Shown here one piece after another: positions 1,190 through 39,082 of a DNA stretch of 64,000 nt. The stretch spans positions 1,002,725 through 1,066,724 of the forward strand of contig NW_003314327.1 in assembly GCF_000143415.4 (NCBI RefSeq). Reading direction: 5' to 3'. A program made the translations under genes and the position numbers. This stretch comes from Selaginella moellendorffii. Its lineage: Eukaryota; Plantae; Lycopodiophyta. Positions within the stretch are counted from its first letter, which is position 1; every line of letters starts with the position of its first letter. The notes under the pieces were generated by a model. The model searched no databases, was not told the DNA's origin, and saw only the letters and a program-made list of their open reading frames with translations.

Positions 1190-1767
1190 TTTCTTCATGC
1201 TCGCTAGGAGATTCATATTGTGGATACCATGGCATTATAGGACCTAGGAGCTTTCATGGCATCAATCACTTTGCAAAATGTTGTTAGAGCTAAAGCACTT
1301 TTGGACTCAAGGTCTAGGAGCAATATTTGTCATTAGCAAAGTTTGTTTGACTCCAGATCTAAGACAACACAGTTGTCATCCTCAAAACAGTTGTGAACCA
1401 CACCATGATTTCAATTGATAGGATCTTATCATTGGTGGATTTTGTGGTAGTAGATTTTCAACAAGTTGACTCAACCTCCCTCAAGGACTTTATGATTTTG
1501 GGATGCTCTTAACACCTCCAAGTAGATGCTGAAACATATTGGAAAAAGGGGATGATGCAAATCAGTCACAAGATCACCAAAGCAAAGCTATACAATGCTT
1601 ATACCTCTGTTTGATGAAGAAGGCTCCTACCCCTTCTCCAACACAAGTCCCTATTCCTACTCCAACTCCAAAGTGCTCAACTTTCCCAACCAACTTATCT
1701 TTCATGAACTTCTCAACAACCTTTCCTTACAAGAGATGGAGGTTTTCAACATTAACATTATCCATCG
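1190..1767 (+). pseudogene. Relic Ty3/gypsy protease region related to element D
   Basis: Degenerate translations ALLDSRSRSNIC (~1296-1330) and VDFVVVDFQQVDSTSLKDFMILG (~1435-1503) parallel element D's ALVDSGSGSNII and DFVVVDYKCLGMSSLKDSIILG. Confidence 0.55.
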
Positions 1768-2079
1768 TGTGAGACACAAAACCCAGAGCCCCAAAAGTAG
1801 AGCCAAAAAGGTGCCATGTGGTAATGGCCGAAGTAGAAGCTAAACAAGAGTAACACGTTTGGACTAAAAACTTCGACTTGAAAAATTGAGAATGGGAGTG
1901 GAACTCTCAACGAAGTGCTCAAGGAACAAGCACGAAGCAAACAATAAGTGAATCTCTAGAAAAGGGACACAAAAGGATCAACACATAACACATGGAAGTG
2001 TTGAGATGGACCTGAGATGGAGTCCAAGATGAACCCGAGATAGAGTTTGAAATGGACACGAGATGGAGTCGAAGATGGA
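1768..2079 (+). mobile_element. Family A LTR fragment (A-i), interrupted in its tandem-repeat region by copy A-ii
   Basis: Begins TGTGAGACACAAAA like all family A LTRs and aligns to the first ~310 bp of 2080ff. Confidence 0.8.
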
Positions 2080-4890: not shown

Positions 4891-7800
4891 TGTAAGCGAC
4901 TAATTTTTCCATTTTACTTTAGTCACTTAACTGCACCTCCGACCACTTGGAGGAGTCTCATTCACAACCTCCATAAGTCCCAGTTAGGACTTGGGGCTTG
5001 CTAGCCCTAAGAATGGCATCCATGCCACCCAACCTTTGCATTTGGTCCAAGTGCTCCATGTGTCCGATCCCATGACCGACACCCCAAGGTACCACCAACA
5101 TACCAGCCCGTTACACTTGGCCATGCCCATTCACCTTGGTCACACCGGTGGTCTAACGCCATCTGCATCATAATTCCGTCTCTCAAAGACTGAGCCGTCC
5201 GTCCATGAGCGATCATCCTAGATCTACTCCTTAGCATCCTTAGGATGCCCGCAGACATGGGGAATAGCCTTCCCCGACAACTCTTTTCCAGTCCCCACCA
5301 AGTCCCTTTTAGTCTATGGCCGTGTTCGCCAACACTGCCACTGAATCAAGGCCCGCAGGCCTGACCGCTAAGTCCCACTATCCTTTGGGACTTCCTCACC
5401 ATGTGACCGTATCCTTCGTCACTGCATTAGAGGCCTACTCCTCTTCCCTTTCACCGTTTGGGACTTTGGGACAACATTTCGGAACACCGTGGCCTTACGC
5501 AAGCCTCATGGGTACTCTCCCCGCCTTTCGCCTTTAGGTGCTCTAGCTATGGGCTTAGAGCGAGGTTCCGTTGAGCCACGATAGGTATCCAAGTAGGTAG
5601 TGCCACCCACACTTGGACTGGGAGCATCGGCCAGTTGATCTCCCGGGGGAACTAGAGCCGGCTCTTGAACACTTCACCAAGCTACCCCGCTTGTCGGTCC
5701 GTGTTCACTCTAGTCTTGGACTTCCCAGTGGGCAGCTCATCACCCAATACTGGGTCCGGCCTTCCTGGGCCAAACTGGCCTTTCCTGGCCAAACTGGCTC
5801 CACTGCAGTCCTCCCCCTACTATACTTTTGGAGCTCACCAAACCCCCCAGGGTCTGGGAGACGAACGCTTTGGGCTTTCACCCTCTCAGGCTCAAACTCG
5901 GACTCGGCCTCGGACTCGGACTCGGACTCGGACTTGGACTCGGATTCTGACCCGGACTCGGACTCGGCCTCGGCCTCGGACTCAATCTCGGTCCCGATCT
6001 CGGTCTCGGTCCCGGTCTCGGTCTTGACCTCGGACTCCATCTCGGGTCCTTCTCGGACTCCATCTCGGACTCCGTCTCGGTCCATCTCGGACTCCATCTC
6101 GGACTCCATCTCGGGTCCATCTCGGACTCCATCTCGGGTCCATCTCGGACTCCGTCTCGGTCCATCTCGGACTCCATCTCGGGTCCATCTCGGACTCCAT
6201 CTCGGGTCCATCTCGGACTCCATCTTGGACTCCGTCTCGGTCCATCTCGGTCCATTTCAGACTCCATCTCGGACTCCACCTCGGACTCCAACTCGGGTCC
6301 ATCTCGGACTCCATCTCGGACTCCATATCGGACTCCACTTCGGGTCCATCTCGGACTCCAATTCGGGTCCATCTCGAACTCCAACTTGGGTCCGCCTCGG
6401 ACTCCATCTCGGACACTTCGATGTGTCATGTGTTGGTCCTTTTTGGGTCCCTTTTTTGAGCCTTTCTTATTGGTTGTCTCGTGCTTGCTNNNNNNNNNNN
6501 NNNNNNNNNNNNNNNNNNNNNNNNNNNNNNNNNNNNNNNNNNNNNNNNNNNNNNNNNNNNNNNNNNNNNNNNNNNNNNNNNNNNNNNNNNNNNNNNNNNN
6601 NNNNNNNNNNNNNNNNNNNNNNNNNNNNNNNNNNNNNNNNNNNNNNNNNNNNNNNNNNNNNNNNNNNNNNNNNNNNNNNNNNNNNNNNNNNNNNNNNNNN
6701 NNNNNNNNNNNNNNNNNNNNNNNNNNNNNNNNNNNNNNNNNNNNNNNNNNNNNNNNNNNNNNNNNNNNNNNNNNNNNNNNNNNNNNNNNNNNNNNNNNNN
6801 NNNNNNNNNNNNNNNNNNNNNNNNNNNNNNNNNNNNNNNNNNNNNNNNNNNNNNNNNNNNNNNNNNNNNNNNNNNNNNNNNNNNNNNNNNNNNNNNGAGG
6901 GTAGCCTCCCCAACTTAGAGACTGATTGGACCACATGTAGTGGTTCTCGCTAAACCTCTTAAAGACCCTTCTCTAAGTCAATCCCACTACTCCTTCTCGG
7001 GTAGTCTCAATTTCCATCTATTGAACGTTTGCACCTTGGAACTTTTACTGTTTTGACTTTTGGAAGTCAATTTCCTAAGTGTCTCCAATACCTTGCATTG
7101 CACAGATTGTGCAACTCCACTTCCCCATCCTAGGAAGTTCATTACTTGAGGGCACCATCATCCTCTCTTCTATTTCGTGCCACCTTGGGCACTAAGTTCC
7201 ATTTATCATACTTTGTGCTAGGGCTGTCCATGGCCCTATCATTTGGCTACCTTACCGCTCCCTCACTTGGAGCTTTTACTTCGCCAAATTGGAGCACTTA
7301 AGAATCCATCCTTGGAAGTCCACTTCCTTTCCCACAAGCTGTTAGCACCGAACACATTAGTGTTCCTTGGCTAACTTTGCCATTTGGATCCCTTCCATTT
7401 AAATTCCATGGCCCAAACTTGGCCACTAGTCCTTTGCTCCTATCCTTGATTGTTGCACCCAGCAACATCGGATCGCTACCTCCATTTTTGAGGTATCCTT
7501 TCGGTTCCATAGCAAAGACTCTTCTTTGCCAAGTCCGGAGGATGTTCACCCCTAGTACGTCTCTTTAGCATCTTCTGCTATGGGCTCTATCCATGGCCCA
7601 ACTTTGTGACCCTCCCATGGATCTTTTATAGAGACTACTTTCCTCGGACTCACTATGCCATCGGACGGACATAGTTTATTTCCCTTAGGTGCTCTTCCCA
7701 CTTGGTCATCACGACCAAGCCACACCATCTTAAACAGTTCAATTTCAACATTTTGAACTAGGAACTTCATTCCTTAGCCAACCAAGGACCTTGTCCTTAT

Positions 7801-10800
7801 CTGGCCATAAGATCACCTAGTGATCTCACCTTGGCACCTTAACAGAGTTGCCAAGAGGTACTTGGTCTTCTAGACCTCCAAGTTGTTGACTATAACCCCG
7901 GGGGCATCCCCAATACTTGGCGGTGCACCCAAGCTAGCCCTTACGGCCAAGGGTTCATAGCAACTGAGATTAGGTGTCCCCATCTCACTCACCATGTCCT
8001 TGGTGCCACTTGCACCAAAGCGTTCAAGTTAGATATGCTGAGCTTTCACACTAAGCAATCTAACCGTGCATCACGACTCCGAAGCATCCCTCGCTTGGCG
8101 GTGTGCCCAAACCAGTCTCCCCACTGAGAGTCCATGACCACCGAAATATGAGTGTCCTCATATTCCAAACCATCACCACGCCCTAGTGATTTGGGACTCG
8201 AACCCAAGCACTAGAGGGTCGGGACTTGAACCCAACCTCCGTATATGCATCTACAGACGGCATCACACCGGATGCCTGACGTGACTCCCCACGCCTGTGC
8301 ACTAACTTATATTTAAAGCGCACTATAGATCACAGCTTAGGAACCTAGTTCCTCCCCACTGCCAAGTCTTCTCACTTGACAAGCCTGTGATCATGCATGG
8401 ACTCCTCCATGCTTGGCCCCATGGCCCACCCTTTTTTGAAGTTATCACCTTCAACTAGGGTATTTGTTCCCTTGACTTGCCAATCTCGCTTTGGCAAGTC
8501 CTCCGACCACTTTAACATGGTTCCTGCACAAGCGTGAAAGCCCTTGATCATCGACTTTCGTTCAAAGCCTTCTCTTTGAACACTCGGGAACTACTTCCCT
8601 AACCTTGATAGCCTTGCCTCATGGCAAGCTTCAAGACCATGCTTCTGCTGCGCCACTCTGATTTCGCGCGTTCCTTGAACCATTTATGCTTGGCCTTTCT
8701 AGGTACTACGCTACCTAGAATCCTCTTTCGGAACCTTGAAGGAACTCTGTCCCTTAGCTTGCTAAGGCCTTCTTTTTTGCAAGCTTTCCAATTGCCACAT
8801 AGTCTAACATGGACAATTCCATATTTTAGACTCTTCATGGCATCACGGTTGCTAGCGGCAACACCCTCGAGCCCCCACTTGATTCTCCACTCCCAGCTGG
8901 CATAACCAACCTTGGTTATGCCCTTCGATTCCTATGGTTCGGTTCCATCCCCTTACTTCTTGCTTTTGGCTTCACACCTTTCCTTCGGTTATTCTCCTCC
9001 AGACCAGGAGGATAGCTTTGCACCTTCTATCATGCCTTAGCAAGTATCCTTAGGGATGAACCTACCCAATAGCCCAGGGAGTGGTTCCTCAATCCAGGTA
9101 TGCTCACCTTATAATCCCACACACTAGGATTACATTGTTGCTTATGGGCCTTTACAGGCCCATCACTAGCCTTGCCAAAATTCCATTTTTGGCTTTGTCC
9201 AACTCGGGTAGACAGTCCTCTCCTGTCTCCGCAACCTTGGACATTTGGATAGCACCTTCTATCTATCATTCGCTAGGGACTTAGTCCCTTGGGCTTTATC
9301 CATTGCCCTCGCGACATCAAACACCACTTTCTGGTGTTCTAGAGTGTTCGGGTGTCCCAATGATGGCTTTCTTGACAATGAGTATTTCCTTTTATGACAT
9401 TGACTTACTATATCGCAACACAAGCAACTTATCCCCCGTAAGGGTATATGCGACTTCCCTATGCTATTAAGAAGTCTTGGGTAGCTACCTTCTACCCGTT
9501 TAACTAGTTATTTTGCACCTCTTGCTTAGTTGCCTCATAGTTGTCAAGTCCTACAACTCATTGCTTGGTGCTTTCACACCTCCATCATTATCTGGGTCAC
9601 CACACTCCAACTGCATGCTTTGCAGCTTAGGCTATGCCATTCCCATTTCCATTGGGATTCCTTTGGCAAGGGGTTCTCATGAACCCACCAACATAACCTC
9701 AAGGTATCACACCTTGGCACATTTGGTGTCTCCACACCATCGGCTCCACGAGCTTACCTCTATGACACTTCTTCTTTGTGTCTAAGTCTTTGCCAAGACC
9801 AATACCACTCTTTCTCATGCCAACCATCTGTTAGCACTGCATCATAGAGGTCACACACAACTTTGTGTCAAAGTTGTTTTCTTTTTGGGAACACCTTTCC
9901 CACGACTTTAGCATGGCACATTTTGCCATCGATGAGATACCCTCTGTTCTCATCCTTGGATCCTATAATCCCCCCCCCATCCTTTGTAAGGTACAACACA
10001 CCTTAGTCCAAATGCTTCCATCAGTCCTTTTAGGACCGTCCTTTGACTCTACTTGAGTCATCGAGCAGTTTTGGACTTGGTTAATCCACAGACCCGTAAG
10101 GTCCTACTTATGAGGCACTAGCTCACTGGAATACACTTCTTGCATTCCTGTCCCACTCAAAAGGACTATTTTCACAAGTGTTACTCTGACACTTGATTTT
10201 GTTCTCTGGGGGCAACCTTTGCCCCTTAGGACTACTTGTCCATGTGATGAGAATACCACTCATCTCTAAGTACACCCCCCAACTCCTTGGGTTGTTCCAG
10301 CATTTATTAAAGGTAGCCCCGGCTACCATTTCAAGGACTTGAGTCCTCTTTCGTATTTGACCTCCCACGGTCATTACTTCTGGTCTCACATTCATGAGCA
10401 CCAACCTCAACTATATGAGGATAATCTTATGACTCCTTTATTGTTTTGGAGTCTCTATCTTTCCCGTGATCCTAACTATAGTTGTTTACCACAACTACCT
10501 TAGCCAACTTGCTGAGACAAATGCTCATCCAGATCACATCCTCAACTCAATGAGGAAAACCTTGCACTGTTCCCAAGATCCCAAAGTCGTTCCATTATTG
10601 GCCCTTTTCTATCCACCACCTTGTCTACAAGTTCACACATGAACTGTAATGGAGAGCCATGTCTTCCTGACTTGCTACTCCTCAAGGATAGGCCCACTCC
10701 TCAGACCTTCCAATGCCAACACTAGTGGTGATATACTTGAGCACCAATAAAAGTCGGATTAAGGAACAGCTCCGATACCAAATTGTAAGCGACTAATTTT

Positions 10801-12400
10801 TCCATTCTACTTTAGTCACTTAACCACACCTCCGACCACTTGGAGGAGTCTCATTCACAACCTCCATAAGTCCAATCCAGGACTTGGGATTTGCTAGCCC
10901 CGAGAATGGCATCCATGCCACTCAACATTTGCACTTGGTCCAAGTGCTCCACGTGTCCGATCCCATGACCGACACTCAAAAGTACCACCGATATGGCAGC
11001 CCGTTACGCTAAGGCCATGCCCAATCACCTTTGCCACACTGGTAGTCCATTACCACTTGCATCACAGTCTTGGCTCTCCAGGACTAGGCAAACCCTCCGT
11101 GAGTGGTCATCTCAGATCCACTCCTTAGCATCCTTAGGATGCCCACCGACAAGGGGAATAGCTTTCCCCAATATCCCTCTATCAGTCCCCACTAAGTCCC
11201 TTTCTGCCCCTGGCCGTGTTTGCCAACACTGCCACTGGATCGAGACCCACAGGCCCGACCACTAAGTCCCATAGTCCTCTGGGACTTCCTCACCACACGA
11301 CTGTGTCCTTGGTCACTACCCCAGAGGACTGCTCCTCTTCCTTTCCATAGTCTGGGCCTTTGGGACAACATTTCGGAACACCGTGGCCCTACGCGGGCCT
11401 CATGGGTACTCTCCCTGCCTTTCGCCTTTGGGTGCTCTAGCCATGGGGTTAGAGCGAGGTTCCGTTGAGCCACACCAGGTATCCAAGTAGGTAGTGCCAC
11501 CCACACTTGGACTGGGAGCATCGGCCAGTTGATCTCCCGGGGGAACTAGAGCCGGCTCTTGAACACTTCACCAAGCTACCCCGCTTGTCAGTCCGTGTTC
11601 ACTCTAGTCTTGGACTTCCCAGTGGGCAGTTCCTCACCCAACACTGGGTCCGGCCTTCCTGGGCCAAACTGGCCTTTCCTGGCCAAACTGGCCTTTCCTG
11701 GCCAAACTGGCTCCACTGCAGTCCTCCCCCTTACTATACTTTTGGAGCTCACCAAACCCCCTAGGGTCTGGGAGACGAACGCTTTGGGCTTTCACCCTCT
11801 CAGACTCAAACTCGGACTCGGACTCGGACTTGGACTCGGGCTCGGTCTCGGCCTTGGCCCTTGTCTCGGTCTCGGTCCCGGTCTCGGTCTCGGTCTCGAT
11901 CCCGGTCTCGGTCTCGGTCTCGGTCCCGGTCTCGGTCTCGACCTCGGACTCCATCTCGGGTCCTTCTCGGACTCCATCTCGGACTCCGTCTCGGTCCATC
12001 TCGGACTCCATCTCGGACTCCATCTCGGGTCCATCTCGGAATCCATCTCGGGTCCATCTCGGACTCCGTCTCGGTCCATCTCGGACTCCGTCTCGGGTCC
12101 ATCTTGGACTCCAATTCGGGTCCATCTCGGACTCCAACTCGGGTCCGCCTCGGACTCCATCTCGGACACTTCCATGTGTCATGTGTTGGTCCTTTTTGGG
12201 TCCCTTTTTGGAGCCTTTCTTATTGGTTGTCTCGTGCTTGCTCCTCGAGCACTTTGTTGGGAGTGCCACTCCCGCTCTCGACCTTCCAAGTCGGAGCTTT
12301 TAGTCCAAACGTGTTATGCTCGTTTGGCTTTCGCTTCGGCCACTACCACGTGGCACCCTTTCCGGCTCCACTTTGGGGCCTAGGGATTTTGTGTCTCACA
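4891..12400 (-). mobile_element. Family A element (A-iii): 3' LTR 4891 to the gap at ~6490, internal region to 10783, 5' LTR 10784-12400
   Basis: Reverse-complement LTR ends TGTAAGCGAC/GTCTCACA; Met PBS GCTCCGATACCA at 10769-10780. Flanks ATACC and ATAGA do not form a TSD. Confidence 0.85.
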
Positions 12401-14447
12401 ATAGACTGTGTCAATGTGATGTGAATCCAAGAAAATAATTTCTAAGAAAGACTTATGGGAAGGCCATAAAGTTGGGTTATGGATAAAGCCCATAGCAAGA
12501 ATGCTAAAGGGACCTATTAGGGGTGAACACCCTTTATATTTAACAAAGCAAAGCCTTTGTTATGAAACTGAAAGGATATCTCAAGAATGAAAGTAGTGAT
12601 CTTATGTTGCTTGGTGCAACAATCAAAGGATATACTAATGGCCAAGATTGGGCCATAAAAATCATTGGAAGGAATCCAAACGACAAAGTTGAGCAAAAAA
12701 CACTTATGTGTTGGATGCTAATGGATTGTGGGAAAAGGAATGTGTTTCCAAGGATGGATTCCTAAATGTTTAAATTTGGCAAAAGTGAAAACTGCAAAGG
12801 AGGGAGCGGCAAGGTAACTAAATGATAGGGTCATGGACAGTTTTAACATAAATTATGGATAAATGGAACTTAGTGTCTAGAGTAGGACAAAATAGAAGAG
12901 AGCATGATGGTGCCCTTAAATAAAGAATTTCTTAGGATGGGAAAATGGAGTTTGCATAACATATGTAATGCAAGGTGTTGAAAACACTCAAGAAATCAAC
13001 TTTGAGAAGTCAAAATTAAAAGTTCTAAAGTGTGATGGTTATATTAATAGAAATTAAGACTAGTAGTAATATTAAGATAGAGAAAGTGTATAGCAAGAAC
13101 TAAATAAACAAAAAGGGAAGGACTACCATAAATGGTTTAATAAATCTTTCAATTGGAGAGACCATACTCTTTAAAGGATGGGAAATGTATGGTGAGCTTT
13201 TGGTGTCGAACCATTGATGAATATTGGCTTGGTGCCAAGGAAAATGGTAATCTATAATGGGGTTACTTTATAAAATGGTTTATCATTTGATGAGGACATC
13301 TAACTTCGTTTATAAGTGGTGGAGTTGTGAGATACAAATCCCTAAGCCCCAAAATGGAACCAAAAGGATGCTTTGTGGTAATGGCTGAAGTAGAAGCCAA
13401 ATGAGTGTAACACATTTGAACTAAAAGCTCCAACTTAGATAATTGAGACTAGTAGTGGAACTCTTAACGAAGTGCTTGAGGAAGCAGTAAGTGAGTTTTT
13501 AGAGAGCACATAACAAGCAATAAGTGAGCTTTTAGAAAAGGGACATAAGAGGACCAATACATAACACATGGAAGTGTCAAGATGGAGTTCGAGATGGGCC
13601 CGAAAAGGAGTATGATAGACCCAAGATAGAGTTTGAGATGGAGTCAGAGATGGAGTTTGAGATGGACCCGAGATGGAAACAGAGATTGAGACCGAGACCG
13701 AGGTCAAACTGAGACCGAGACCGAGGTCAAGACTGAGACCGAGACCGAGGTCAAGACTAAGACCGAGACCGAGGTCAAGACTGAGACCGAGACCAAGGTC
13801 AAGACTGAGACTGAGACTGAAACCAAGACCGAGTCCAAGTCCGAGTCTGAGTCCGAGCCCGAGTCTAAGTCTGAGGGTGAAAGCCCAAAGAATTCGTTTC
13901 CCAGACCCTAGGGGGTTTGGTGAGCTCCAAAAGTATAGCAGGGGGCAGACTTTAGTAGAGTTAGTTTAGCCAGGAAAGACTAATGTAACCAAGGAAGGCT
14001 ATACCCATGTGTTGGGTGATGATATAACCATTAAGGAGTTTAAGGCTAGAGTGAGTATAGACAAACAAACGGGGTAACTTGTTGAAGTGTTCAAGAGCTG
14101 GCTATATCTCCCTCGGTGATCGAATGGTCAATGCTCCCAATCCAAGTGTGGGTGGCACTACCTACTTGGATATCTAGTGTGGCTTATTAGAACCTCACTC
14201 TAACCATATAGATAAGGCACCTAAAGGCAAAACGTGGGGAGAATACCCATAAAGCTTGTGTAGGGCTATAATGTTTTGAAATGTCACCACAAAGTCCTAG
14301 ACTATAGAAAGGAAGAAGAGCAATCCTCTAGTGTAGTGACTAAAGATAATATCACATGGTGAGGAAGTCCTAAAAGACAGTGGGACTTAGTGGTCAGGCT
14401 TATAGGCCTTGACCCGGTGGTGGTGTTGGCAAGCACAACCATGGATA
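12401..14447 (+). mobile_element. Older family A fragment (A-iv): 3' internal region, PPT, and 3' LTR from 13326, interrupted by A-v
   Basis: Decayed, AT-shifted homology to 37370-39780; GTGGTGGAGT PPT followed by TGTGAGATAC at 13326. Confidence 0.8.
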
Positions 14448-16244
14448 TGTAAGCGACTAATTTTTCCATTCTACTTTAGTTACTTAACTATACCTTTGAC
14501 CACTTGGAGGAGTCTCACTCACAACCTCCATAAGTCCTATTCCAAACTTGGGGACTTGTTAGCCTTGAGAATGATGCCACTCAACTTTTGCACTTGGTCC
14601 AAGTGCTCCACGTGTCCAATCCCATGACCGACACCCCAAGGTACCACTGACAAATTAGCCCGTTACGCTCAGGCCATGCCCCTTCACCTTGGTCATATCG
14701 GTGGTCTAACACCACCTACATCACGGTCCCCTCCCTTAAGGACTGGGCTATCCATCCATGAGTGGTCATCCCAGATCCACTCCTTAGCATCCTTAGGATG
14801 CCCGTAGATATGGGGAACAGCTTTCTCCAATATCCCTTTTCCAGTCCCCACCAATGTCCCTTTTTGTCCATAGCTGTGTTTACCAACATTGCCACTGGAT
14901 CAAGGTCTATATGTAAGCCACAAATTTTTCCTTTCCAATTTGCTAGCTCACCTCGTCTATCCGTCCGACACTGCCTTGGCTTTTGCTAAGTTCCCTCGCC
15001 AAGGTTCTTGCCTATGGTACCAGCTCCTACTTGGTCCTACTTGCTTTCAGCTACTCACTGCACGAGCAACGGAGCGTTAGCCACCATCCACAGATTCCCA
15101 ATCTCTCCCAATCCCCCTCCCCGGGTTAGACTGGACTTAAGGTTCGGCTACACTCCCCGCAAGCACAAGCAGCCAAGCACACCAAGCTTCCAGGTTCCTA
15201 ACTTCCCTTGGTACCACAAGACTTGATCATAGGACCCTCTAAATCCCAAGTCTTGAGTGCAACACTTGCTTCGGGACGCCGGGGCGAAACACCGTGGCCT
15301 AGCGGCCCGGTATGGGTACCTTTACCCCCCCACTTCTATCCCGAAGGAAGGCCCAAGCCCCTAGGAAGGGCGAGGACCAATGAGCTGCATGGTACTCAAG
15401 TGGGGCACCACTCCACATGAGCCGGGAGCACCGCAATCGGTTTCCCTTTCGGGAGTGGGAGCTGCTCTTGAGCACTTCCTTGGATGGCCCCTCCGGCACC
15501 AACCAAGTCCATGCTCACTCCCACCCAAGGCCCCTCGGTCCCAGTCCCAACCTCAAGTCAGTTTGGGAGCCCCACTGGAGAGTCCCTTCTAAACTGGTTC
15601 CTGGACCTCACTATCCCTACTATACTTTTGGAACCCCCTACAGCCCCCCCGCCCTGGGAGACGCACGCTTTGGGCTTTCACCCCTTGACTCGTATTAGTA
15701 TTTGGACTTAGTCTCTGGCTCGATCTCGAACCCGATTTCGGATCCGACTTCGGATTCGGTCTCGGACTCGATCTCGGACTCGATCTCGGACCCGATCTCA
15801 GACCCGACCTCGGACTCGACCTCGGACTCGGTCTCGGACCCGATTTCGGATCTCGGACTCCGTCTCGAACTCGGTCTCGAACTCGGACTCGAACTCAGTC
15901 CCCGAGTCGGTCTCGGACTCGATTCCGGATTCTATCTCGAACTCGGTCCTAGAGTCGGTCTTGGACTCGATCCTCGACTTGGTCCCATCCGATGAACTCT
16001 TTGTCATTTTGGTCATGCTTTCGGGGTTCCTTTAGCCTACGACACCTCGGCGAGTTGGTTCCTTACAACTCCACCACCCATAGAAGAAGTTCGATGCCCA
16101 CATCGAACATCTCGTTTTATCCTACGACTTGTTGACCATGTCTTCGGGGGCATCCCCCCACTTAGCGGTGTGCATAAGTTAGCCTCCCCGGCCAAGAGCC
16201 CATGACAACGGAATATAGGTGTCCCTATACTCCTCACCTCACCA

Positions 16245-16376: not shown

Positions 16377-16852
16377 GGTCGACCTAGCTAACCCATGCTA
16401 ATTAGCTTACCTTCGGCATGCCTTCGGGTCCCAACATATGCCACTTGCTCAACTTTGCAAATTGATATTTTTAATTGAACTTTGCATAAGTACATAGAGT
16501 TTTGCCATGCAGAAATTCCTCCACTAGATCTCGCACGTTCGCTAGGTTCTCCTCCGGTTCCCATGTTGCTTCGCAGTGTGGAAATCCTTTCCACTTCACA
16601 TGGAACTCTCTCACCTCGCGTCCTTGTCGCTTGCTCTTGCGTGCATTGAGGATGGCCTCGACTTCGTATTCCTCCTCCCCTTGGATAACCTCAGGTAAAG
16701 GTCTTACTTGGTCCTTGCGAAGCGGATCCTCAAAATACGGCTTGAGCAAGTTCACGTGGAACATGGGATGCATCTTCCCCATCTCTCGAGGAAGTCGGAG
16801 ACGGTAAGCCACTTTACCGATTCGAGCCTCAATCTCGTAAAGCCCCGCGAAC

Positions 16853-16904
16853 CTGCTTAAGGAACTCAAGATCAATTCATTTACAGGAATACATGCATTT
16901 TTAC
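16853..16904 (-). other. Putative 52-nt GT-AG spliceosomal intron immediately before the integrase GPY/F motif
   Basis: CAAAG|GTAAAA...TTAAGCAG|GTTCGCG; AT-rich; removal joins KLTQ-R-FAGLYEIEARIGKVAYRLRLP in frame. Confidence 0.82.
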
Positions 16905-17322
16905 CTTTGGGTCAACTTTCGGCTGATCCCACTTGGTAGCCTAAGGTCCTTGGTGTTCAGCCACACCTTCTCCCTAGCTTGGAACTCCACATCCCGACGC
17001 TTTTGGTTCGCGTACTTAGTTTGCCTTTGTTGAGCCCGTTCCAAGGAATCCCTCACTAGATTCCAAATGTTGAGTCTTTCCGCCGTGAATGCCTCCACTG
17101 CGGGTAACTCTCCATGATACTCGGCCACGCCGAATTCCACAGGACCTTCAATAGCTCGCCCATTGATGACTTCCCATGGACTCACCCCGATGCTCGAATG
17201 TGGTGAGTTGTTATAACACATTTCCGCAAGTCCCAAATGATTTACCCAATCGGTCTGGTCTTCTGAGACATAGCATCGCAAATAATCCTCCAGCTGCCTA
17301 TTCACCCTTTCCATTTGTCCGT

Positions 17323-17368
17323 TTGTCAAGAAGTGTTAGTGCCATCAACTTGACTTAATACCCCATAC
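17323..17368 (-). other. Putative 46-nt spliceosomal intron in the integrase core (3' AG mutated to AA in this copy)
   Basis: ACAG|GTATGG...GCACTAAC...TTGACAA|ACGGA; removal gives HPQT-D-GQMER. Confidence 0.72.
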
Positions 17369-20300
17369 CTGTCTGTGGGTGATAGGTTGTGCTGAATTTC
17401 AACTTGGTGCGATACTGTTCTAGGAGTGTCCTCCAGAACCTACTGGTGAAGATCTTATCTCGATCTGAGATAATCTCTTCCGGCCTTCCCCGCAGTCGAA
17501 CCACTTGTTCGAAGAACAGCTTCGCCACACCTTCCGCATCCACTTCTGTTGTGGTGGGTATGAAATGTGCCATCTTTGAAAATCGGTCCACCATCACGAA
17601 TATCGCATCGAACCCCTCGCTTGGGGGTAGTCCCGTGATGAAGTCCATCGTGAGACACTTCCACGGACGATCTGGAATTGGGATGCTTTGCAACAAGCCC
17701 CCACTAGCCTTAGTCACGACTTTGACTTGCTGACATGTTGGACATGTCTTTACATAGTCTTGGACGTCCTTAGCCATATCTGGCCAATGGTACTTCCTCT
17801 TGAGTAAGCCCATCGTCTTGGGCACTCCGCCGTGTCCCGCAAGAGGTCCGTCATGACACTCTTCTAAGGCTACCTTCCTTAGTTCCCCTTCTGGAACATA
17901 CACCCTCGTTTGCTTGTAATAGATGAGTCCGTTGTGTTCCGCATAGCCCGTTTTCTCTTCCGTCGGCAGCTCACCTCTCTGGTGAGCTTCCCGCGCCTCT
18001 AGATTCCTCAGCAACACTTCTTGTGCTAGACCATCGTTCTCATATGCTGTCCGCACATCGTCCCAGAAGGTTGCTGTTGCGCTGGATATCGCTAATTTCA
18101 AGCTCGCTTTTCAACTTAGCGCATCCGCCACGATGTTGCTCTTCCCAGGCTTGTACAGAATTTCGCAATCAAACTCGGCCAAGGTATTGGCCCACCGACC
18201 TTGTTTCCCTCTCAGGTCGGGCTGTGACAAGAAGTGTTTCGTTGCCACATTGTCCGTGTAAACCTTGAAGTGTCTCCCAAGGTAGTGTCGCCACTCCTTA
18301 AGCGCCTTGACCACCGCAAACAGTTCCTTCTCATGGGCAAGCCACTTCCGTTGAGCCTTGTCCAACTTCTTCGAGAAGAACGCTACTGGATGGTTGTCTT
18401 GCTTCAAAACTGCGCCCAACGCAAAGTCCGAAGCATCCGTTTCTACCTCAAAGTCCTTACCAAAGTCTGGTAATGCCAACACTGAAGCCTTCCTCAACTT
18501 CCCTTTGAGGTGGACAAATGCCGCCTCGCATTTTGCTGTCCATACCATTTTCCCTTTTCCTGTTTGGTCCGTTAAGGGCAGGGCTACTCTCGAATAGTGT
18601 CTAATAAAATTTCGGTAGTAGTTGCATAGCCCCAAGAATGCCCTTAACTCGTGTACATTCGATGGTCGTTCCCATTCCTGGATCGCTTGGACCTTCTCCG
18701 GGTCCACCTTGAGCCCGTCCTGGCCCACCACATGCCCGAGAAACTTTACCTCTTGTTGAGCAAAGTCACATTTGCTCTCTTTAGCATACAGTTTGTGTTC
18801 CCTTAGTTTCTCAAACACCTTCGCCAAGTGTTCGACATGCTCCTCTAGCGTCTTGCTATAGATCAGGATGTCGTCGATATAGACGACCACAAAGTGATCC
18901 AGATAGGGTACAAAGATGTGGTTCATCAACGCCGAAAACGTTGCCGGTGCATTGCATAGCCCAAAAGGCATCACCAGAAACTCAAAGCTCCCATACCTCG
19001 TTCGATAGGTTGTCTTCTCGACATCTTCCTCAGCTACCCTGATCTGGTAGTATCCTGACCTTAGGTCAATCCTCGAGAAGTATTTTGCCTTTCCCAACCT
19101 ATCGAACAGGTCCTCGATCCTTGGCAAAGGGTACTTGTTCTTCTTGGTATACTTGTTGAGCAACCGGTAGTCTATGCATATGCGCATAGATCCATCTTTC
19201 TTTTTCACAAATAGCACCGGCACCCCATACGGCGACTTGCTCAACCTAACATACCCTTTGTTCACCAACTCCTCTAGATGGCGCTTGAGCTCCGCGAGTT
19301 CTTTTTCGTTCAATCGATAGGGTGGACGAACCACAGCCTCAGCACCCTCAACCAGCTCAATCTTATGTTCTATCGGTCGTGCGGGGGGCAACCCCGCCAG
19401 TAGCTCCTCCAGCATGGTATCCTGGAATTGGTCCAGTACCCGCTGGATCACTAAAGGTACTTCTTCTGTTCTTGTCTTTTTGTCACTCTTCACCGAGAGT
19501 AAGCACAAAAAGGCTGCCTTAGTTCCTTTAGTGAGTTGTCCTCTCGTGGACACCAGGTTTAAGCATGACTCTTTGGCCTTGCTTTGCCCTACCTTTAGAT
19601 CCTGGGCCTCCACCCTAGATCTTCTTCCTTGGGCATTCGCCAATACCACAAGGTTCCTACCTTGTCCATGCAGGGCTACCACGAACCGATTAAACCAATC
19701 CATTCCGAAGATCACGTCAAATCCCGCCATGTCCAAGACAGTGAAATCCATGTCTACTTTCCATGTCCCTACTTCGACTCTCGCTTGTCGAAGTACCTCA
19801 TCGGTGCTTTGGCTACCTTGAACAAACTCTATAGTCCTTGGTTCGCCTAGCCGCTACACCGTTAGTCCGGCTTGCCGGACTATGTCTGCAGCCACAAAAT
19901 TATCCGAGGCACCCGTGTCAATAAGGATCTTAACAAAGCTACCTCCGAGCTTCCCTCGGAGGGCTAGTAGATGTCGCGAACGACTTTCTACCAAAGTTGC
20001 TCGTGTAATGAGTAGCTTTGAGTTAGGGACTAGATCACATACCTCAGTTTGGACTTCACCCGACTTGATGGCCATATTGGCTCTGGCCTTCTTCGGGTAG
20101 GGACATTCCCTCGAGAAGTGTCCCGCTTCGCCGCAGTTGTAGCATACGTTGTTTCCCACGCCGCTATACGACTTGACCTTCTTATCCGTGGGTTTGTCTC
20201 TTTTCGCTTGACTTCCCCATGTACTCGCTCGCTGGCCACCGGATTTGCCTTTCCGAAACCCCGAGGACTCATTCTTAAAGAAACTCTTCTTGAATTTCCC

Positions 20301-23300
20301 CTTGCTATATGTTCCCCTCGGTTTGGCCCCTTTGTGAAACGTGGATCCCGACCCCGTCGTGTTCCCCTTTCGCAGGTTATCGTTAAAATGCACCTTGATG
20401 GCCGCATCCAACACTTCCTTGTAGTTGGTCGGGTTCCAGCGCATCACCTCACCGCGAGCCCAGGTTTGCAGACCTGATATAAACGCATGGAACGCATTCA
20501 TATCCCCCATGTCCGTGACAAGTATCCTCTTTACCATGAACCCATTCACATATTCCTGGATGGTTCCAGTCTGCTTCAGCCTACTCAGCTCATCTCTCAG
20601 ATGCAGAGTGGCATTCGGAGGAACATATGTTGCACGGATCCTCGTCTTCATCATGTCCCAGGTGGCCACTGGTCCTTCGTTGGCCTCCGTTGTTCTCCAC
20701 CAAGACTTGGCATTATCTGCCAAGTATGGTTTTGCACATGGGACCTTCTCCGAGCTCGGTAACCTCAACGCTTGGAAGTAGTCCTCCATATCGTAAAACC
20801 AATCCTCCACAACCTTATAGTTGTTCACTCCCTTGAACACCGGTGGGGGCTTTGGTTTGTACTTGGGAACTACCTGAGGGACTGATTCCACTTCGGTTTG
20901 TTCGACCTTGTCTGGTTTTGCCTCAGTCCCTGCCGAAGGGTCTGCACCTTCTGCGCTGCCAGCATCCGCAGTCTTTCGCTTTTTCTTCCGCTTCTCGTCA
21001 CGCTTTAACTTGCGTACGAGAGTCTCCAGCAGGGCATTGGTCTGTGCCAACTGTCCTTCTAGCACGTCCAATCGAGCCTTGGACGACCGAACCTCACCAC
21101 CGGACTCCTGTTTGGAAGTTTCCTCACTAGAGTCCTCCTCGTGCAAGGATTCCTCATCCATAGCCTCTTGTTCAACCAGAGGCTCCAGCTCTGGCAGAGG
21201 TTCCGTCTCCGCCTGGGTTCGCTTACGCCCTGCCCTTGCCATCTCCCAGCAATCCGCCTCTATCCTTCGCTAGAACTAAGGAAAAGGCTCCGATACCAAA
21301 TTGTAAGCCACAAATTTTTCCTTTCCAATGTCCCTTTCTGTCCATAGCTGTGTTTACCAACATTGCCACTGGATCAAGGTCTATATGTAAGCCACAAATT
21401 TTTCCTTTCCAATTTGCTAGCTCACCTCGTCTATCCATCCGACACTACCTTGGCTTTTGCTAAGTTCCCTCGCCAAGGTTCTCGCCTATGGTACCAGCTC
21501 CTACTTGGTCCTACTTGCTTTCAGCTACTCACTGCACGAGCAACGGAGCGTTAGCCACCATCCACGGATTCCCAATCTCTCCCAGTCCCCCTCCCCGGGT
21601 TAAACTGGACTTAAGGTTCGGCTACACTCCCCGCAAGCACAAGCAGCCAAGCACACCAAGCTTCCAGGTTCCTAACTTCCCTTGGTACCACAAGACTTGA
21701 TCATGGGACCCTCTAAATCCCAAGTCTTGAGTGCAACACTTGCTTCGGGACGCTGGGGTGAAACACCGTGGCCTAGCGGCCCGGTATGGGTACCTTTACC
21801 CATGAAGGCCGAAGCCCCTAGGAAGGGCGAGGACCAATGAGCCGCATGGTACTCAAGTGGGGCACCACTCCACATGAGCCGGGAGCACCACAATCGGTTT
21901 CCCTTTTGGGAGTGGGAGCTGCTCTTGAGCACTTCCTTGGATGGCCCCTCCGGCACCAACCAAGTCCATGCTCACTCCCACCCAAGGCCCCTCGGTCCCA
22001 GTCCCAACCTCAAGTCAGTTTAGGAGCCCCACTGGAGAGTCCCTTCTAAACTGGTTCCTGGACCTCACTATCCCTACTATACTTTTGGAACCCCCTGCAG
22101 CCCCCCCCCCCCCCCTGGGAGACGCACGCTTTGGGCTTTCACCCCTTGACCCGTATTAGTATTTGGACTTAGTCTCTAGCTCGATCTCGAACCCGATTTC
22201 GGATCCGACTTCAGATTCGGTCTCGGACTCGATCTCGGACTCGATCTCGGACCCGATCTCGGACCCGACCTCGGACTCGACCTCGGACTCGGTCCCGGAC
22301 CCGATTTCGGATCTCGGACTCTGTCTCGAACTCGGTCTCAAACTCGGACTCGAACTCAGTCCCCGAGTCGGTCTCGGACTCGATTCCGGACTCTATCTCG
22401 AACTCGGTCCTAGAGTCGGTCTTGGACTCGATCCTTGACTTGGTCCCATCCGATGAAACTCTTTGTCATTTTGGTCATGCTTTCGGGGTTCCTTTAGCCT
22501 ACGACACCTCGGCGAGTTGGTTCTTTACACTATAGGCCTGACCATTAAGTCCCACCTCTTCTGGGACTTCCTTTCTACACGACCGTATCCTTGGTCAATA
22601 CACCAAAGGACTACTTTTCTTCCTTTCTACAGTTTGGGACTTGGGACAGCATTTCGGAACACCGTGGCCCTACACGAGCCTCGCAGGTACTCTTCCCGCC
22701 TTCCGCCATTGGATGCTCTAGCCATGGGCTTAGAGCGAGATTCCGTTGAGCCATGCCAGGTATCCAAGTAGATAGTGCCACCCACACTTGGACTAGGAGC
22801 ATTAACCATTCGATGTCCCAGGGGAACTAAAGTTGGTTCTTGAACACTTCACCAAGCTACCCCGCTTGTCGGTCCATTTTCACTTTAGTCTTGGCCTTCC
22901 CAGTGGTCAATTCATCACCCAACACCTGGGTACAGCCTTTCTAGGCCAAACTGGCTTTTCCTGGCCAAACTAGCTCCACTAGGCTCCAACCCCCACACTC
23001 TCCCTACTATACTTTTGGAACCCCCTGCAGCCCCCCCTCCCCAGGGGACGATCGCTTTAGGCTTTCACCCAACAGCCTGTATTAGTATTTGGACTTGGAC
23101 TTGGTCTCAGCCTCAGACTCAGACTCGGTCTTGGTCTTGGACTCGGACTCGGTCTCGGTCTTGGCCTCGGACTCAACCTCGGACTCAGACTTGGTCTCGG
23201 TCTCGGTCTCAGGTCTCTATCTTGGGTCCATCTTGGACTCCATCTCGGGTCCATCTCGGACTCCATCTCAGATTCCATCTCAAACTCCATCTCAGACTCC

Positions 23301-24431: not shown

Positions 24432-27400
24432 TATTGGGGGAAGGAGGGGCGCTTCCTCCAACGCTCGCTCAAACACAAGAAATGCTTCACTGCTCTTCGC
24501 AAAATGCCCCCCCCCTTTGCCCTTGTGGGGCAAGGGTTTTATACAAGGAAGATGTGGAATATTCAAAGGACCAGAATATTCCCTCTCTCTCTCTCACACT
24601 CTCGGTGGCCACGCCCTAACATGCAACCACAGTGGATCACACTAGCTCTAGATGCGCGAGAACCCTCCGAACAGTGTAGAGTGGACCGCGGCTACTGAGG
24701 CCAAGTGCTGGTAACTACGTGAAATAGTAGAAACTCTAGAAAACAAAGTGGAAAAGAAAGAAAAGAGGTAGGTATGAAGTTTGGAGACAGGGAGGAAAAC
24801 CCAGTGGGAAACCCTGTAGTCAAACTGGACCTTGAAGTTGAAGAAAAGTGTAGAAAAAGTGTGAAAAGAGGAGGAAAATAGAGGAAAAAGAGTGAGCACC
24901 CAAAAAACTTAACCAGTGCCTGGATTTCGGCTCAGGAAAGTGTAATATGCAAATGCAACCTCTTGATGACTTTCGGTATGCTCCAAGGATTGGCCAAAAT
25001 CGAGAAAGAAAAAGAGGTAGAAGAGGGGATGCGTTATCCAAGGGTGGTAAGTATGGAAATGATGAAAAATGGAGTGGTATGGTGGAGCACCGAGATGGTG
25101 GTGGCACTTTGAAAAGGTTGCCATTGATAACTATTGCCCCATAGAGTAAGTGTTGACCACTCGGAGTAGCCAGTAACCAGTAACTAGTAGCTGGGTACTT
25201 GTAACCGGTAACCACTTGCTCTCGCTCCTACTCTTGTGCTTGCTCCGGCACTAATATGGTGGAGCGCTGAGATGGAGGTTGCACTCCAAAAAGGTGGTCA
25301 GTCTAATGTGTCGGACTGAAGAAGTCAATAGGTAAAAAGGACAGCATAGTCACTGGGTTGCCGATAAAGAGAGGTGGCATGTGTCCACTAAGTGCTAGAG
25401 CAGAAGAAAGTGGCTTTGGCTTCTATAGCTTCGCCTAAAGATCCACCTAGGTGCCTTGAGTGAACAGGTTCACCTGGTTGGAAGAAAGTCGCTCCAAAAA
25501 AGCTAGTGCATCGTCAGCAAATGGTCATAAGGATATCTCACAAACGGCACGTCCAAATGAGGTGGTGTCTTTTGCTGCTAGTGCATGTATGTGTGTCTGT
25601 GGTATAGTGTAAATGTGACCTCATGCAGAGATGTGAATGATGGTGAAAGAATGAAAGATGCAAGACGGGAATCTAGAGATAAGTGTGGGCAACACTGCTG
25701 GAAGTGATTGGTGATGGAACTGTGAGTGTAGATGATATGGAATGAGTGAGAGGAATGTGTGGGGTGTAGTAATGGTAAGGGAAGGGCCAAAGAACCTGGA
25801 ACATAGATTGAGCCAAGTGAGGAACCTCCATACAAATGGCAATGCAGCTTGAGGGCAAAATCCAAAGCATAAGCCACGGTCCAATGGAGAAACACCCTCT
25901 GAAAGTAAGAAAAATAGCCATGAAAGTAAAGTGAAAGAAAGGAAGAAAAAGAAAAAGAAAAAGAAGAAAAAAGGAACGCCTTACTAAATGAAGTGTTTGA
26001 GATGAGAGTGGTTGTGAGCGTGTGGGAGCTCCCATCCATCAGCATCAACTAGCACATATGCTCCACCTCCGATGTATCGCTGGACAAAGTAGGTGCCGGT
26101 CCAGCGAGGGGAGAACTTCGAAGGTGGAGTAAACTCCTTGAGTAGAACAAGATTGCCATCCTCGAATGGTTCGGCAGACTGCTAGTGATCAATGACTGAC
26201 TTGATCTTTTGCTTGCCTCGAAGGAGATGTTTTGATGTGGATCGTCATTGTTCTTCCAAGGCAAGAACCTCCAAGTCACATACATGAAGCTTGTCTTCAT
26301 CACTAAGCTAGATCTCTATTGGAAGCATGGCCTCTGTCCCATAGACAAGGGAGAATGGGGTCGCAGAGATGGATGTCTTGAAGGATGTCTAAAAGGCCCA
26401 CCATGCCATAACTAAGTGTTCGTGCCAACGCCTTGGGTGATTCTCCACAAGCTTTGAGATGACTGTCTTCAATATCTTGTTACTGGATTCCGCCTGGCCA
26501 TTGCACTCAGGAGAATAGCTGCTGCTCTTCACATGCTTGACCTGTAGCTGTTGGAGAAGATGCATCACACACTTCCGCCGCATGTGAAAAGTTGGCTGGA
26601 ACTCTTGAATGGTCACAATCCAAGATAAAGTACGAGGACTGTGAACTAGTCGCTGTAAAAGAAAAGTCAGCACAATAAAACAAACATGGGAATGGATACA
26701 GGCTCCAGCAAGAAAGTGACAAAATCGCTCCAAGGTATAAACAACAGCCATTGCTTCTTTTTCTGCATCCACGTACTTCTTTCCAATCTCCTCGAACGAA
26801 TGTGAGGCATAATATGTTGCATGTAGTGGCTTGCCAAGCTGTGAACATTGGAAAAGGTATAGTCCAAAAGCCTCCGTGCCCGTCGTGATGTAAATTTTGA
26901 AAGGAAGTTGTTCTGGTGGTTGGAGTACTAGGGGCTCCATGGTAGGAAATTCTAAACTCAAAGAACTATAACTCGCATGCAGCATGTTCGATTGGCTTGA
27001 TTCTTTCTACCAGTTCTATGTCTGGATGTTATCCTCCATCTCCAAGAAATGGCATGACAGAATACACTCAGAGTCATCAGCTACCACGATTTTAGTAGGA
27101 AGATGTTGGCTGTGTGACACCTTAGATAGTTGCTGAGAAGGATTGAGTTCGGCTGTGTCCTGCGAAAGATGGACCTGGTCTGGAGTGACTGTGTCATCAA
27201 GCTCCATAAGAGAGAGTTGGTCCCATGCAAGAAACAAATCGAGGAGCCCTTCCTTTATCAAGAAACGCTCCAAAAAGCTGGATATGGGAGCCCATACTTT
27301 ATAAGCCCCGTCATCAAATAAAGAGGGCCTGTCTAGAGGCTTGGCCTTACTCTTAAATAAAGAGAGTGATGTTGAGAGATGTCTCGGGCTGCCTAACTCA

Positions 27401-30400
27401 CCTCCAACCATGTCAATCACATTGCATGAGAAAGCATCCATCATATAGATGGTCGACACCACCGCCAACTTAGGAAAAACCTCTGTGAGCTCAGGAGGAA
27501 AGTATGGTGTGGAGGCCATTTTAGTCAGAGCTTGCTAGGCTTGCTAAGAAAGAGCTCTGCCGTGGTTGTTGAGAAAGGTGGCACTGTGGGTTCCATCGCT
27601 AATTTCCATCTTGCCTTGTGTGCTGTCAATGGTGCAATGGGATGTGACTTGCCATGAACGGCCAAGGATGATAGAGTCCTTCAAAGAGGACATTCCAAGA
27701 CATTTGTAGTCAACCACGACGAAATCCACCTTAGAAATAACACCCTACACAGAGATTTTGACACCACAGCAAATTCCTGCTAGAGGAACGTTATGGTTGG
27801 TGAAGGTTTTGAGCACGATGGAGGAGCTCTCAGTGATTTGTAGCTGTGCTGAAAGGGCAGCCTCGAGAGAGATAATGTTGCTTCCAGAACCGGAGTCAAC
27901 CAAAGCATCCATCCTATAAGAGGAAGTACCGATCTGCACTAGGACGAAGAACGAACCAGGATCTCCACCATATCTTGTCATATCGACAATGTGCACCTCT
28001 TGAGGAGTCCTCTTGAGAGTGCTCTCTAGTGTTCCTGACCGTGCAAACTCCTCTAAATGCTAGCTGAATCCCAGGACAAGACACAATATGTCTTGGAGCG
28101 AAAAGGTGACAGTAGTGTCAACCAACTATTGAAGAACTAGTTCCAGAACAGGAATAGCTGTTGGTGAGATCTCAAAAGGAGGAGAGAGTAGTGACTTGAA
28201 GGGGAGCTTACAAGCCACCCTCTGTGTCACTGGGCCTGATGCCAACGGAGATTCGCTCTCAACTGGCGGCGGGGGATTTGTGGCAAGCTGAGCGGCTGCC
28301 TTCTTCTTTGCTTGGGCTCGAGTGGTTGTGGTTTGCTGCTATTGCCTATAGAGTTCCTCGGCTACCAAAATTGTGTTGACTGATGAGGCTGGTGCCTTGC
28401 CTTTGCTTGACCAAGGGCTGCCTCAATTGCTTGTCGTTCCAACTGCTCCTGATACATCTCTAGACCCCGAGATGATATGGAATTATTAGTGAAGGGATGT
28501 TGTTGGACACGTTGAGAAGATGGAGGCCGAAGCTCTGGGTGAAGCTTGAAGCAGCGCTATGTGTTGTGTGTGTTCATCTCGCAGTAAGTGCACTAGCAGG
28601 ATTTAAATCTACGTTCCCGAGCTGTAGCGGCCTCTTTCCTAGACTCCACCAGCTCCTGGAGCAGTTTGTCATGGTGTGATTGCTACTGAAGAATGATCTC
28701 CTTCAGCTGCCACATCTCATTGGCAAAGTTCTCAAGAGCCGGAGGTGTATGCTCAATAGTGACGGGCTTTGGTATGGACAGATGAATGTACAAGGTGACT
28801 CTAACGAGATGATGGCTTGGTCAAAATCAACTCTAGTAATCCCCAGGTTGACCAGAAGCTCTCTTTCTAGCTTCGTGGCAAACGAAAATGCCTCACGGCA
28901 AAACCTGAATGTCTTCTTAAGAAGTTTCCGCTGCACGTTCCCACGTAGACCTGCTATGAATGCCATGATCCCCTGTTGCTCATCTTGGACTACTCTGCAA
29001 TCCCAACACTACTTGCAGTAAGTTCGAAACCATGTGATGTTGTCAGGAACAGACTCGTGAGCACCCTGCTGGAACGAAAAGAGGTCGACAAGTAGCTAAT
29101 TTGTGGGTTTTTCCTCAACAAAGCATTCTCTGAAAGAAGCAAGTAGTGTCTGGAAGTTTGTCTAGTCCTCTGGGAGGAGAGAATCTACCCAAGTTGTTGC
29201 TTTGCATTCAAGAGATTGCAAGAAGTCATGGCACATACGATCATCATCGACAATCATGTTTGTGGTGCAGTAGTAATCAAAGCGACTAATATGCAATGTT
29301 GGAGAGACTGTTCCAACACCTAAGAAGGTTGGCAGATCACTCCCCTTCTGCAGAACATGGAGCTGAGGTCGAGCTAAGGGTGGTTGTGCGATAGCTCGTA
29401 GATCTAAGTCACTGGAATCTGCCAAGGATGAAGAGGGCTCAGCCCGAGAAGGTGCAGTGTCGTATCTAAGCTGCCTTTGGATGTTAGAAAATTTACTTCG
29501 TACCTTAGGGCCTCGAGGTATGGTAAAAGGGTGCCAGTTTGTCGTATGTCTAGTTTGTACCCGCATCAAGTACCCTAAACATTGCAAATGCCCGGTCAAG
29601 GCAACTGGGTTGACAGGAGCAAGAAGACTGTAGGCTAGTGCTCAAGTTGCTCAAAGTTGCCCAAAATGCCTGTGACGAAGAGGAATAAAGGTGAAAACGG
29701 AGATGTAGGCCTCAAGCACACATAACCATTGACCCGTGGGATAATCACCAAAGTAGCCACTGGAGTAGCCAGTAACTGGTAACCGAGGACAAATAACCGG
29801 GACCTGTGACCTGTAACTGGTAACCCCCGCTCTCGCTCCTACTCCTACGCCTGCTCCAACACCAACTCCTATCCCTGTACCCGTTCTTATTGTCCCTGTT
29901 CCTATGCCAACTCTTGTTCCTGCTCCTCCTGTTCCTGTTCCTACGGCTACCTGTTCCTTGAAGATTGCTTCATTCCCAAGGAACCCCCAACAAAGTTTAA
30001 CCCAAAAGAGAAAAATGAGTCCTTTGGTCTTGATCCTTCCCTATTTTGACTGTTGGTGGGCTTGTTGGAAAGAGATCAGCCCCGTCTACCCTCTATTGTA
30101 GGAATATGAGAAGAAGCCACCTCAATATTCCCTGAAATCCATGAAGAGGTAGCCAGAACACCAATATTGTGGAAAAACATGTGCATGTTTATGATGTACA
30201 TCGATACTGAGGCGCCATTGGTATTTCTGGAAAGCCTAGGACCAAGAGCACCTTTAGAAACAAACGGCATCCAAAACAAAGCCTGGAAGAGCACAAATTC
30301 CTACTACAAAGATGACCCAACTTAGCCGGAGAAGAAAATCCTTTTGCATGCCATCAATTCGCCCAAATCTAGTGCCAAGAACCACCACTACTAATAGATC

Positions 30401-33097: not shown

Positions 33098-33129
<32 letters not shown>

Positions 33130-39050: not shown

Positions 39051-39082
<32 letters not shown>

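Follow-up and report, generated by a model that had tools for sequence, protein, structure and literature searches.

Are the two short AT-rich inserts that interrupt the integrase gene of one long terminal repeat (LTR) retrotransposon of Selaginella moellendorffii, here called element C, spliceosomal introns, or do they simply break the gene? Copying through RNA should strip an LTR retrotransposon of its introns, and the gene interrupted here encodes an enzyme needed for each new insertion. We put the chance at about two in three (0.68) that both inserts are gained spliceosomal introns, in which case the full integrase could be made from spliced RNA only and unspliced RNA would be the form that is propagated. 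All positions refer to the window, by which we mean the whole stretch of 64,000 nucleotides that was analyzed.

Element C is a Ty3/gypsy chromovirus with its integrase in three pieces

Element C runs on the minus strand from 22529 to 14912, a span of 7618 nt that includes an extra piece of 84 nt, and it is nested, its target being an LTR of a related element. It has the Gag-PR-RT-RH-IN order with a C-terminal chromodomain that characterizes the chromoviruses, together with paired TG...CA LTRs, a primer-binding site (PBS), a purine tract, and a 5-bp target duplication (Table 1). The PBS motif is one that we take to be of the tRNA-Met type. Comparison of the 3' LTR with the 5' LTR region gave 1173 identities and 27 substitutions. 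Across the coding pieces, Pfam matches followed one another in the order Gag, zinc knuckle, PR, RT, RH, integrase, SH3_Tf2-1, and chromodomain. The stretch from Gag to the integrase core is a single frame, and it aligned with an unbroken homologue in one tblastn stretch. This copy is dead, since gag-pol contains two in-frame stops, at 19854-56 and 18111-13.

The 84-nt piece (21302 to 21385, minus strand) lies between the 5' LTR and the PBS. A portion of 61 nt resembles the insertion's own 3' flank and overlaps the LTR-end repeat; the piece is either an assembly error or the result of a repair or recombination event.

Table 1. Features of element C and their positions in the window
Feature	Position	Strand	Description
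Target site duplication, left copy	22530..22534	-	5 bp
5' LTR	21386..22529	-	1144 nt, TG...CA, G15 tract
Primer-binding site	21287..21298	-	taken to be of tRNA-Met type
Gag-pol frame, unspliced	17355..21242	-	1295 codons: Gag, zinc knuckle, PR, RT, RH, integrase HHCC and two Asp
Insert 1	17323..17368	-	46 nt, phase 1, donor AG/GTA, ends CAA in this copy
Integrase piece 2	16905..17322	-	open, 138 codons; catalytic Glu, remaining core, linker, start of SH3-like tail
Insert 2	16853..16904	-	52 nt, phase 2, AG/GTA...CAG/GT
Integrase piece 3	16471..16852	-	remaining SH3_Tf2-1 (GPY/F) domain and chromodomain; contains the 309-nt "ORF3" from 16782
Purine-rich tract preceding 3' LTR	16069..16079	-	
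3' LTR	14912..16067	-	1156 nt
Target site duplication, right copy	14907..14911	-	5 bp

Element C likely belongs to the published SM1-Galahad family

The SM1-Galahad family of Selaginella moellendorffii is about 7.5 kb long and present in hundreds of copies at 95% similarity, according to the main text of its description (Novikov et al. 2012, PMC3350952). The same text gives LTRs of 1076/1146 bp with G tracts, a tRNA-Met PBS, and a consensus open reading frame (ORF) of 3885 bp, or 1295 amino acids, that lacks a chromodomain. Behind this long ORF it places two short ones of 316 and 309 bp, of which the 309-bp ORF has a group I chromodomain.

Element C shares with the family its size, its G-tract LTRs of more than 1 kb, its tRNA-Met PBS, and its three-ORF layout. 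In figures, it measures 7618 nt with LTRs of 1144/1156 nt and a G15 tract, and it has an ORF of 1295 codons from 21242 without a chromodomain and a separate chromodomain ORF of 309 nt (103 codons) from 16782. The middle ORF, of 316 bp in the consensus, is 318 nt long in element C when counted by hand from its second Met and 414 nt long from its first. Element C likely belongs to SM1-Galahad, the match being one of published layout and lengths rather than of exemplar sequence.

The main text treats the tail of SM1-Galahad as two additional ORFs and leaves the stop of the long ORF before the catalytic Glu unremarked; the strings "intron" and "splic" occur in it 0 times. The earlier note on this DNA knew of no description of the arrangement. 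The element and its three-ORF layout had in fact been published in 2012, and it is the introns that go unmentioned there. No intact SM1-Galahad copy was found at that time. The closely related sister family SM2-Galahad, likewise of hundreds of copies, is described in the same text with one intact ORF of 1577 amino acids and LTRs that are 99.7% identical (PMC3350952).

The inserts carry splice-like signals and fit the reading frame exactly

The positions, sizes, and AT-richness that the earlier note had claimed for the two inserts were reproduced. Their GC contents are 0.39 (insert 1) and 0.33 (insert 2); the coding DNA on either side has about 0.50. All 4520 other coding-region windows of 52 nt exceed the value of insert 2, and a value as low as that of insert 1 was seen in only 3.8% of 4538 other 46-nt windows. 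Both inserts are 3n+1 in length. The sequence AG/GTA, found at the upstream border of each, occurs at 13 of about 4720 coding positions of element C, and the chance of meeting it at both inserts is about 2e-4, a post hoc estimate in which five registers were allowed for each.

The claim of splice signals at both inserts held for the AG/GTA donors and for the CAG end of insert 2. It did not hold for the end of insert 1, CAA, which is noncanonical and had not been flagged. In terms of U2-type introns, a GT donor is thus present at both inserts and an AG acceptor at insert 2 only. Because it ends in CAA, insert 1 of this copy lacks a canonical acceptor, and we do not file it as a working intron here, where it stays a candidate. 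Alternative AG acceptors near insert 1 were considered by eye and rejected: upstream ones would leave 15 to 20 nt, and the next downstream AG lies 16 nt past the insert, out of frame and beyond the Glu codon. A CTAAC sequence stands 12 nt ahead of the end of insert 1, and in insert 2 the match to a branch point is only weak. A length of 46 nt is short for an intron, and the putative branch point of insert 1 is near its 3' end.

Removal of the inserts restores the integrase exactly, as had been claimed. In an alignment to Ty3 Gag-Pol (7q5b), residue 1267 is the last covered by piece 1 and residue 1269 the first covered by piece 2. We then counted the residues between adjoining pieces against 151 homologues, excluding at each junction those whose matches fell short of it. 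Of the matches that could be used, 118 of 119 at junction 1 and 40 of 49 at junction 2 left exactly one residue, that of the split codon, between the pieces. The spacing from the second Asp to the Glu, counted across the break, is 35 residues. The one-residue joins at both junctions and this spacing together indicate that neither insert cost the gene a coding base.

Insert 1 splits a codon four residues ahead of the catalytic Glu, and the unspliced gag-pol frame meets a stop 10 nt into the insert, upstream of that Glu, in agreement with the earlier note. One supporting detail failed: the peptide FAGLY, cited as a conserved motif behind insert 2, is GP[FY] in homologues (7 of 121 proteins matched the pattern used). 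Insert 2 is set in a direct repeat of 4 nt and insert 1 in one of 5 nt with one mismatch. Short repeats of this kind resemble the pattern left by intron gain through insertion with target duplication.

The inserts are family-wide

The published consensus stops where element C stops, so insert 1 is part of the SM1-Galahad consensus; insert 2 follows from its having two short ORFs rather than one. In a genomic sequencing run (X1), 59,723 contigs aligned to the internal region. Depth in the bins of the two inserts was 1.02 and 0.95 million, in a range of 0.68 to 1.20 million over 30 bins (these depths are not copy numbers). No joint lacking an insert was present among the 15 best-supported of the 67 joints counted in this run, and those 15 had depths of 153 to 356 versus about 340,000 inside insert 1. 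Since the consensus has the same breaks and the genomic run covers both inserts at flat depth, both inserts are family-wide and not private to one dead copy, the latter being the main refuting condition named in the earlier note.

In the same run, only two rows of insertions or deletions reached at least 5% of depth in 5251 nt, both of them inside insert 1 (14% and 25%) and none in the coding pieces; being adjacent, the two are perhaps one variant. At 16841, just behind insert 2, where element C departs from the GP[FY] motif, 99.7% of the depth differs from it, so this departure is private to the copy. Among the 40 private differences listed (of 321), 27 are losses of the C-to-T type, and a loss of this type would account for the AA end of insert 1; place 17323, at that end, does not figure in the 40.

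Integrase pieces 2 and 3 were also compared with five unbroken homologues, giving 33 to 44% and 32 to 43% identity, respectively. The same five share 32 to 54% (piece 2) and 32 to 43% (piece 3) with one another, one close pair aside. On this comparison, which is blind to recent decay, long-term decay of the two pieces is excluded. SM2-Galahad has its single intact ORF and all homologues found are unbroken at both places; the inserts would therefore most simply be gains on the SM1 lineage.

Searches of RNA, protein, and metagenome collections

Three RNA runs (X22 to X24), of each of which about 12% (9.2 million records) was sampled, yielded 10, 2, and 0 reads of the element and no joints, and 12 reads are too few to test splicing. 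Three of the 12 reads, near insert 2 (16774 to 16960), appear to match only partly and then continue into unlike sequence; their source is perhaps another transcript that contains a rearranged copy.

No gene model joining the integrase pieces was present in the protein collections, the best identity being 47% among the 150 representatives listed. The closest protein match to piece 1 had 54% identity. Longer proteins gave one match, at 39% identity, and none of four candidates of similar length joined the pieces. A look-up in the atlas returned generic integrase-tail clusters only. A pattern search of metagenomes for an insert at the same codon gave 12 matches, none of which encodes an integrase, and we regard them as chance; in viral contigs scanned for the insert pattern there were 5 pattern matches, none confirmed.

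A proposed scheme of integrase expression through splicing

Judged from sequence, the reading of the inserts as introns is well supported, and the products expected from it can be laid out. Unspliced RNA would encode Gag-PR-RT-RH with a truncated integrase that lacks the catalytic Glu. If only insert 1 were removed, the core would be made without most of the SH3-like tail and without the chromodomain; the full enzyme would require removal of both inserts. The SM1 lineage may have gained the inserts by insertion, with duplication of a short target, and may have kept them because they could be spliced. New insertions are likely copied from unspliced RNA.

A full-length RNA that has been spliced still has the PBS, the purine tract, and the LTR ends and should therefore yield copies without inserts. 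The rarity of such copies would require either that the RNA pools for translation and packaging be separate or that splicing be inefficient and insert-less copies be selected against. Separate pools are described for barley BARE in a passage of PMC3735527. In S. moellendorffii, intron retention is reported to be the commonest form of alternative splicing, with 42% of events, and the retained introns to be short (passages in PMC5310277); partial splicing is plausible because retention of short introns is so common in this plant.

Two extensions of this scheme go further. That the inserts were later selected as a control of integrase dosage is a tentative suggestion, which we think somewhat doubtful. 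That a family of hundreds of copies possesses a three-output switch, giving no integrase from packaged, unspliced RNA, a core without chromodomain when one intron is out, and a chromodomain-targeted enzyme when both are out, seems to us rather unlikely. Against the splicing scheme as a whole stand the AA end of insert 1, its shortness and the place of its putative branch point, the lack of a joined protein, and the lack of an intact SM1-Galahad copy in the 2012 survey beside an intact SM2-Galahad. Copies without inserts, which a spliced RNA should yield, were also not among the 15 joints listed (of 67).

Alternative explanations

The inserts might instead have been fixed in a founder without ever being usefully spliced, the family being dead for integrase and spreading by means of a relative's enzyme, for example that of SM2-Galahad. 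We consider this possibility, which the earlier note did not raise, unlikely, and it is the alternative that survives best. A donor is at hand in SM2-Galahad, which is close, numerous, and intact, with nearly identical LTRs, and no intact SM1 copy was found in the published survey (main text of PMC3350952). Several elements in the window itself have related LTRs but lack a detectable gag-pol, such that mobilization in trans looks common in this clan. A family without working integrase would explain the lack of insert-less copies with no extra assumptions, and it agrees with the lack of a junction read, in only 12 RNA reads. However, it requires that AG/GTA should stand by chance at two independent inserts (the post hoc figure given above) with zero coding bases lost, and it sits poorly with the location of the common indels, which spare pieces 2 and 3 and are confined to insert 1, and with the absence of long-term decay from those pieces.

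A second possibility is that the inserts are fossil introns, the acceptor of insert 1 having been lost in a master copy from which much of the family then expanded nonautonomously. The AA end of this copy, the indel polymorphism inside insert 1, and the existence of an intact sister family all agree with such a history. However, C-to-T type losses dominate the private changes and the site would be in a CHG context, so that a private loss of the acceptor is the simpler reading, and the fossil history is, in our view, very improbable.

Ribosomal +1 frameshifting past both breaks, in place of splicing, would suit the 3n+1 length of the inserts and the frame of piece 3, which, followed upstream, stays open across insert 2 as far as 16911. 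Piece 2 ends in AGG followed by a stop, loosely like the +1 sites of Ty1 and Ty3. However, stops interrupt insert 1 both in the frame that leads into it and in the frame that leads out of it, which rules out a frameshift across it, and at insert 2 a frameshift would add 17 residues inside a conserved motif; we give frameshifting hardly any weight. Insertions private to a single dead copy, or errors of assembly, which the two in-frame stops, the odd 84-nt duplication, and the N gaps of the window might suggest, are largely refuted by the published consensus with the same ORF lengths and by the independent genomic run that covers both inserts.

Other features of the window

Elements with LTRs related to those of element C and the same tRNA-Met PBS, and with no detectable gag-pol, lie at about 4891-12401, 32459-40210, 45864-49880, and 1767-4890, and they are likely large nonautonomous derivatives. 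Two of them are about 95% identical and inverted. The LTRs of this clan (15700-15990, 22150-22450, and others) contain tandem arrays of 6, 12, 23, and 35 nt with GAGACC/GAGTCC-like units, which differ in length among copies and generate long spurious ORFs. A second, decayed element of the Ty3 type, with remnants of RNase H and integrase, occupies 25500-29700 on the minus strand. Between 40200 and 44600, about 4.4 kb has a plus strand strongly skewed to T and G and no long ORF.

A broken Helitron Rep/PIF1 helicase gene lies at 53987-58146, and behind it, at 58700-62800, a unit of about 1.3 to 1.4 kb (repeat family D17) occurs three times. The earlier note had taken introns of a host-type RPA gene in the window as a gauge of spliceable size. 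An RPA70-like fragment is indeed present at 63080-64000, and its introns, of 54, 79, and 77 nt, are mere candidates. Because it lies about 5 kb behind the Rep/helicase gene on the same strand, it is probably not a host gene but cargo that a Helitron carries.

Comparison with known systems

The inserts have apparently gone unrecognized as introns in an already described family. No report of introns within the integrase of an LTR element was found in the literature searched, which lay outside most subscription papers, Repbase, and two REXdb supplements. A 2025 review gives as plant exceptions only Ogre and elements of the EVADE type, which tune Gag against Pol, in the part of its text that deals with them (PMC12786077). 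SM1-Galahad would be a further variant of splicing-based expression among LTR retrotransposons; splicing in it is likely, and any regulatory gating through it is conjectural.

If the proposed splicing is real, a spliced full-length RNA can escape reverse transcription even though it is the sole source of an essential enzyme, and both integration and chromatin targeting are tied to host splicing. The sorting of RNA between translation and packaging would become testable with a built-in marker, and the three unexplained ORFs of the published family would be reannotated. More generally, short introns could make working families seem broken to pipelines that look for a single ORF. The family would also offer two recent, datable intron gains within a retroelement, both at short target duplications, and its sister family, free of introns, could serve as the outgroup.

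The nearest parallel is Ogre, a Ty3/gypsy element of the Tat group in pea and Medicago, in which an intron in the polyprotein gene is spliced from part of the transcripts and its removal is needed for the whole polyprotein (passages in PMC6317226 and PMC4408406). The Ogre intron, however, lies between protease and RT, where element C is uninterrupted, its inserts being in integrase. In the Ty1/copia elements EVADE and BARE1, splicing likewise sets protein ratios, and BARE keeps separate RNA pools, but the spliced product is a short mRNA for Gag only, whereas SM1-Galahad would need splicing for its longest product (passages in PMC5580714 and PMC3735527). Penelope-like elements also keep spliceosomal introns after retrotransposition, and one Selaginella family has an inferred intron, but these are non-LTR elements that lack a DDE integrase and are copied by another mechanism (passages in PMC8557442). 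Finally, Ginger1 DNA transposons carry introns, up to 4, in Gypsy-like integrase genes; unlike the LTR elements, they move by cut and paste with no RNA step, and the keeping of introns is therefore expected in them (passages in PMC2836005).
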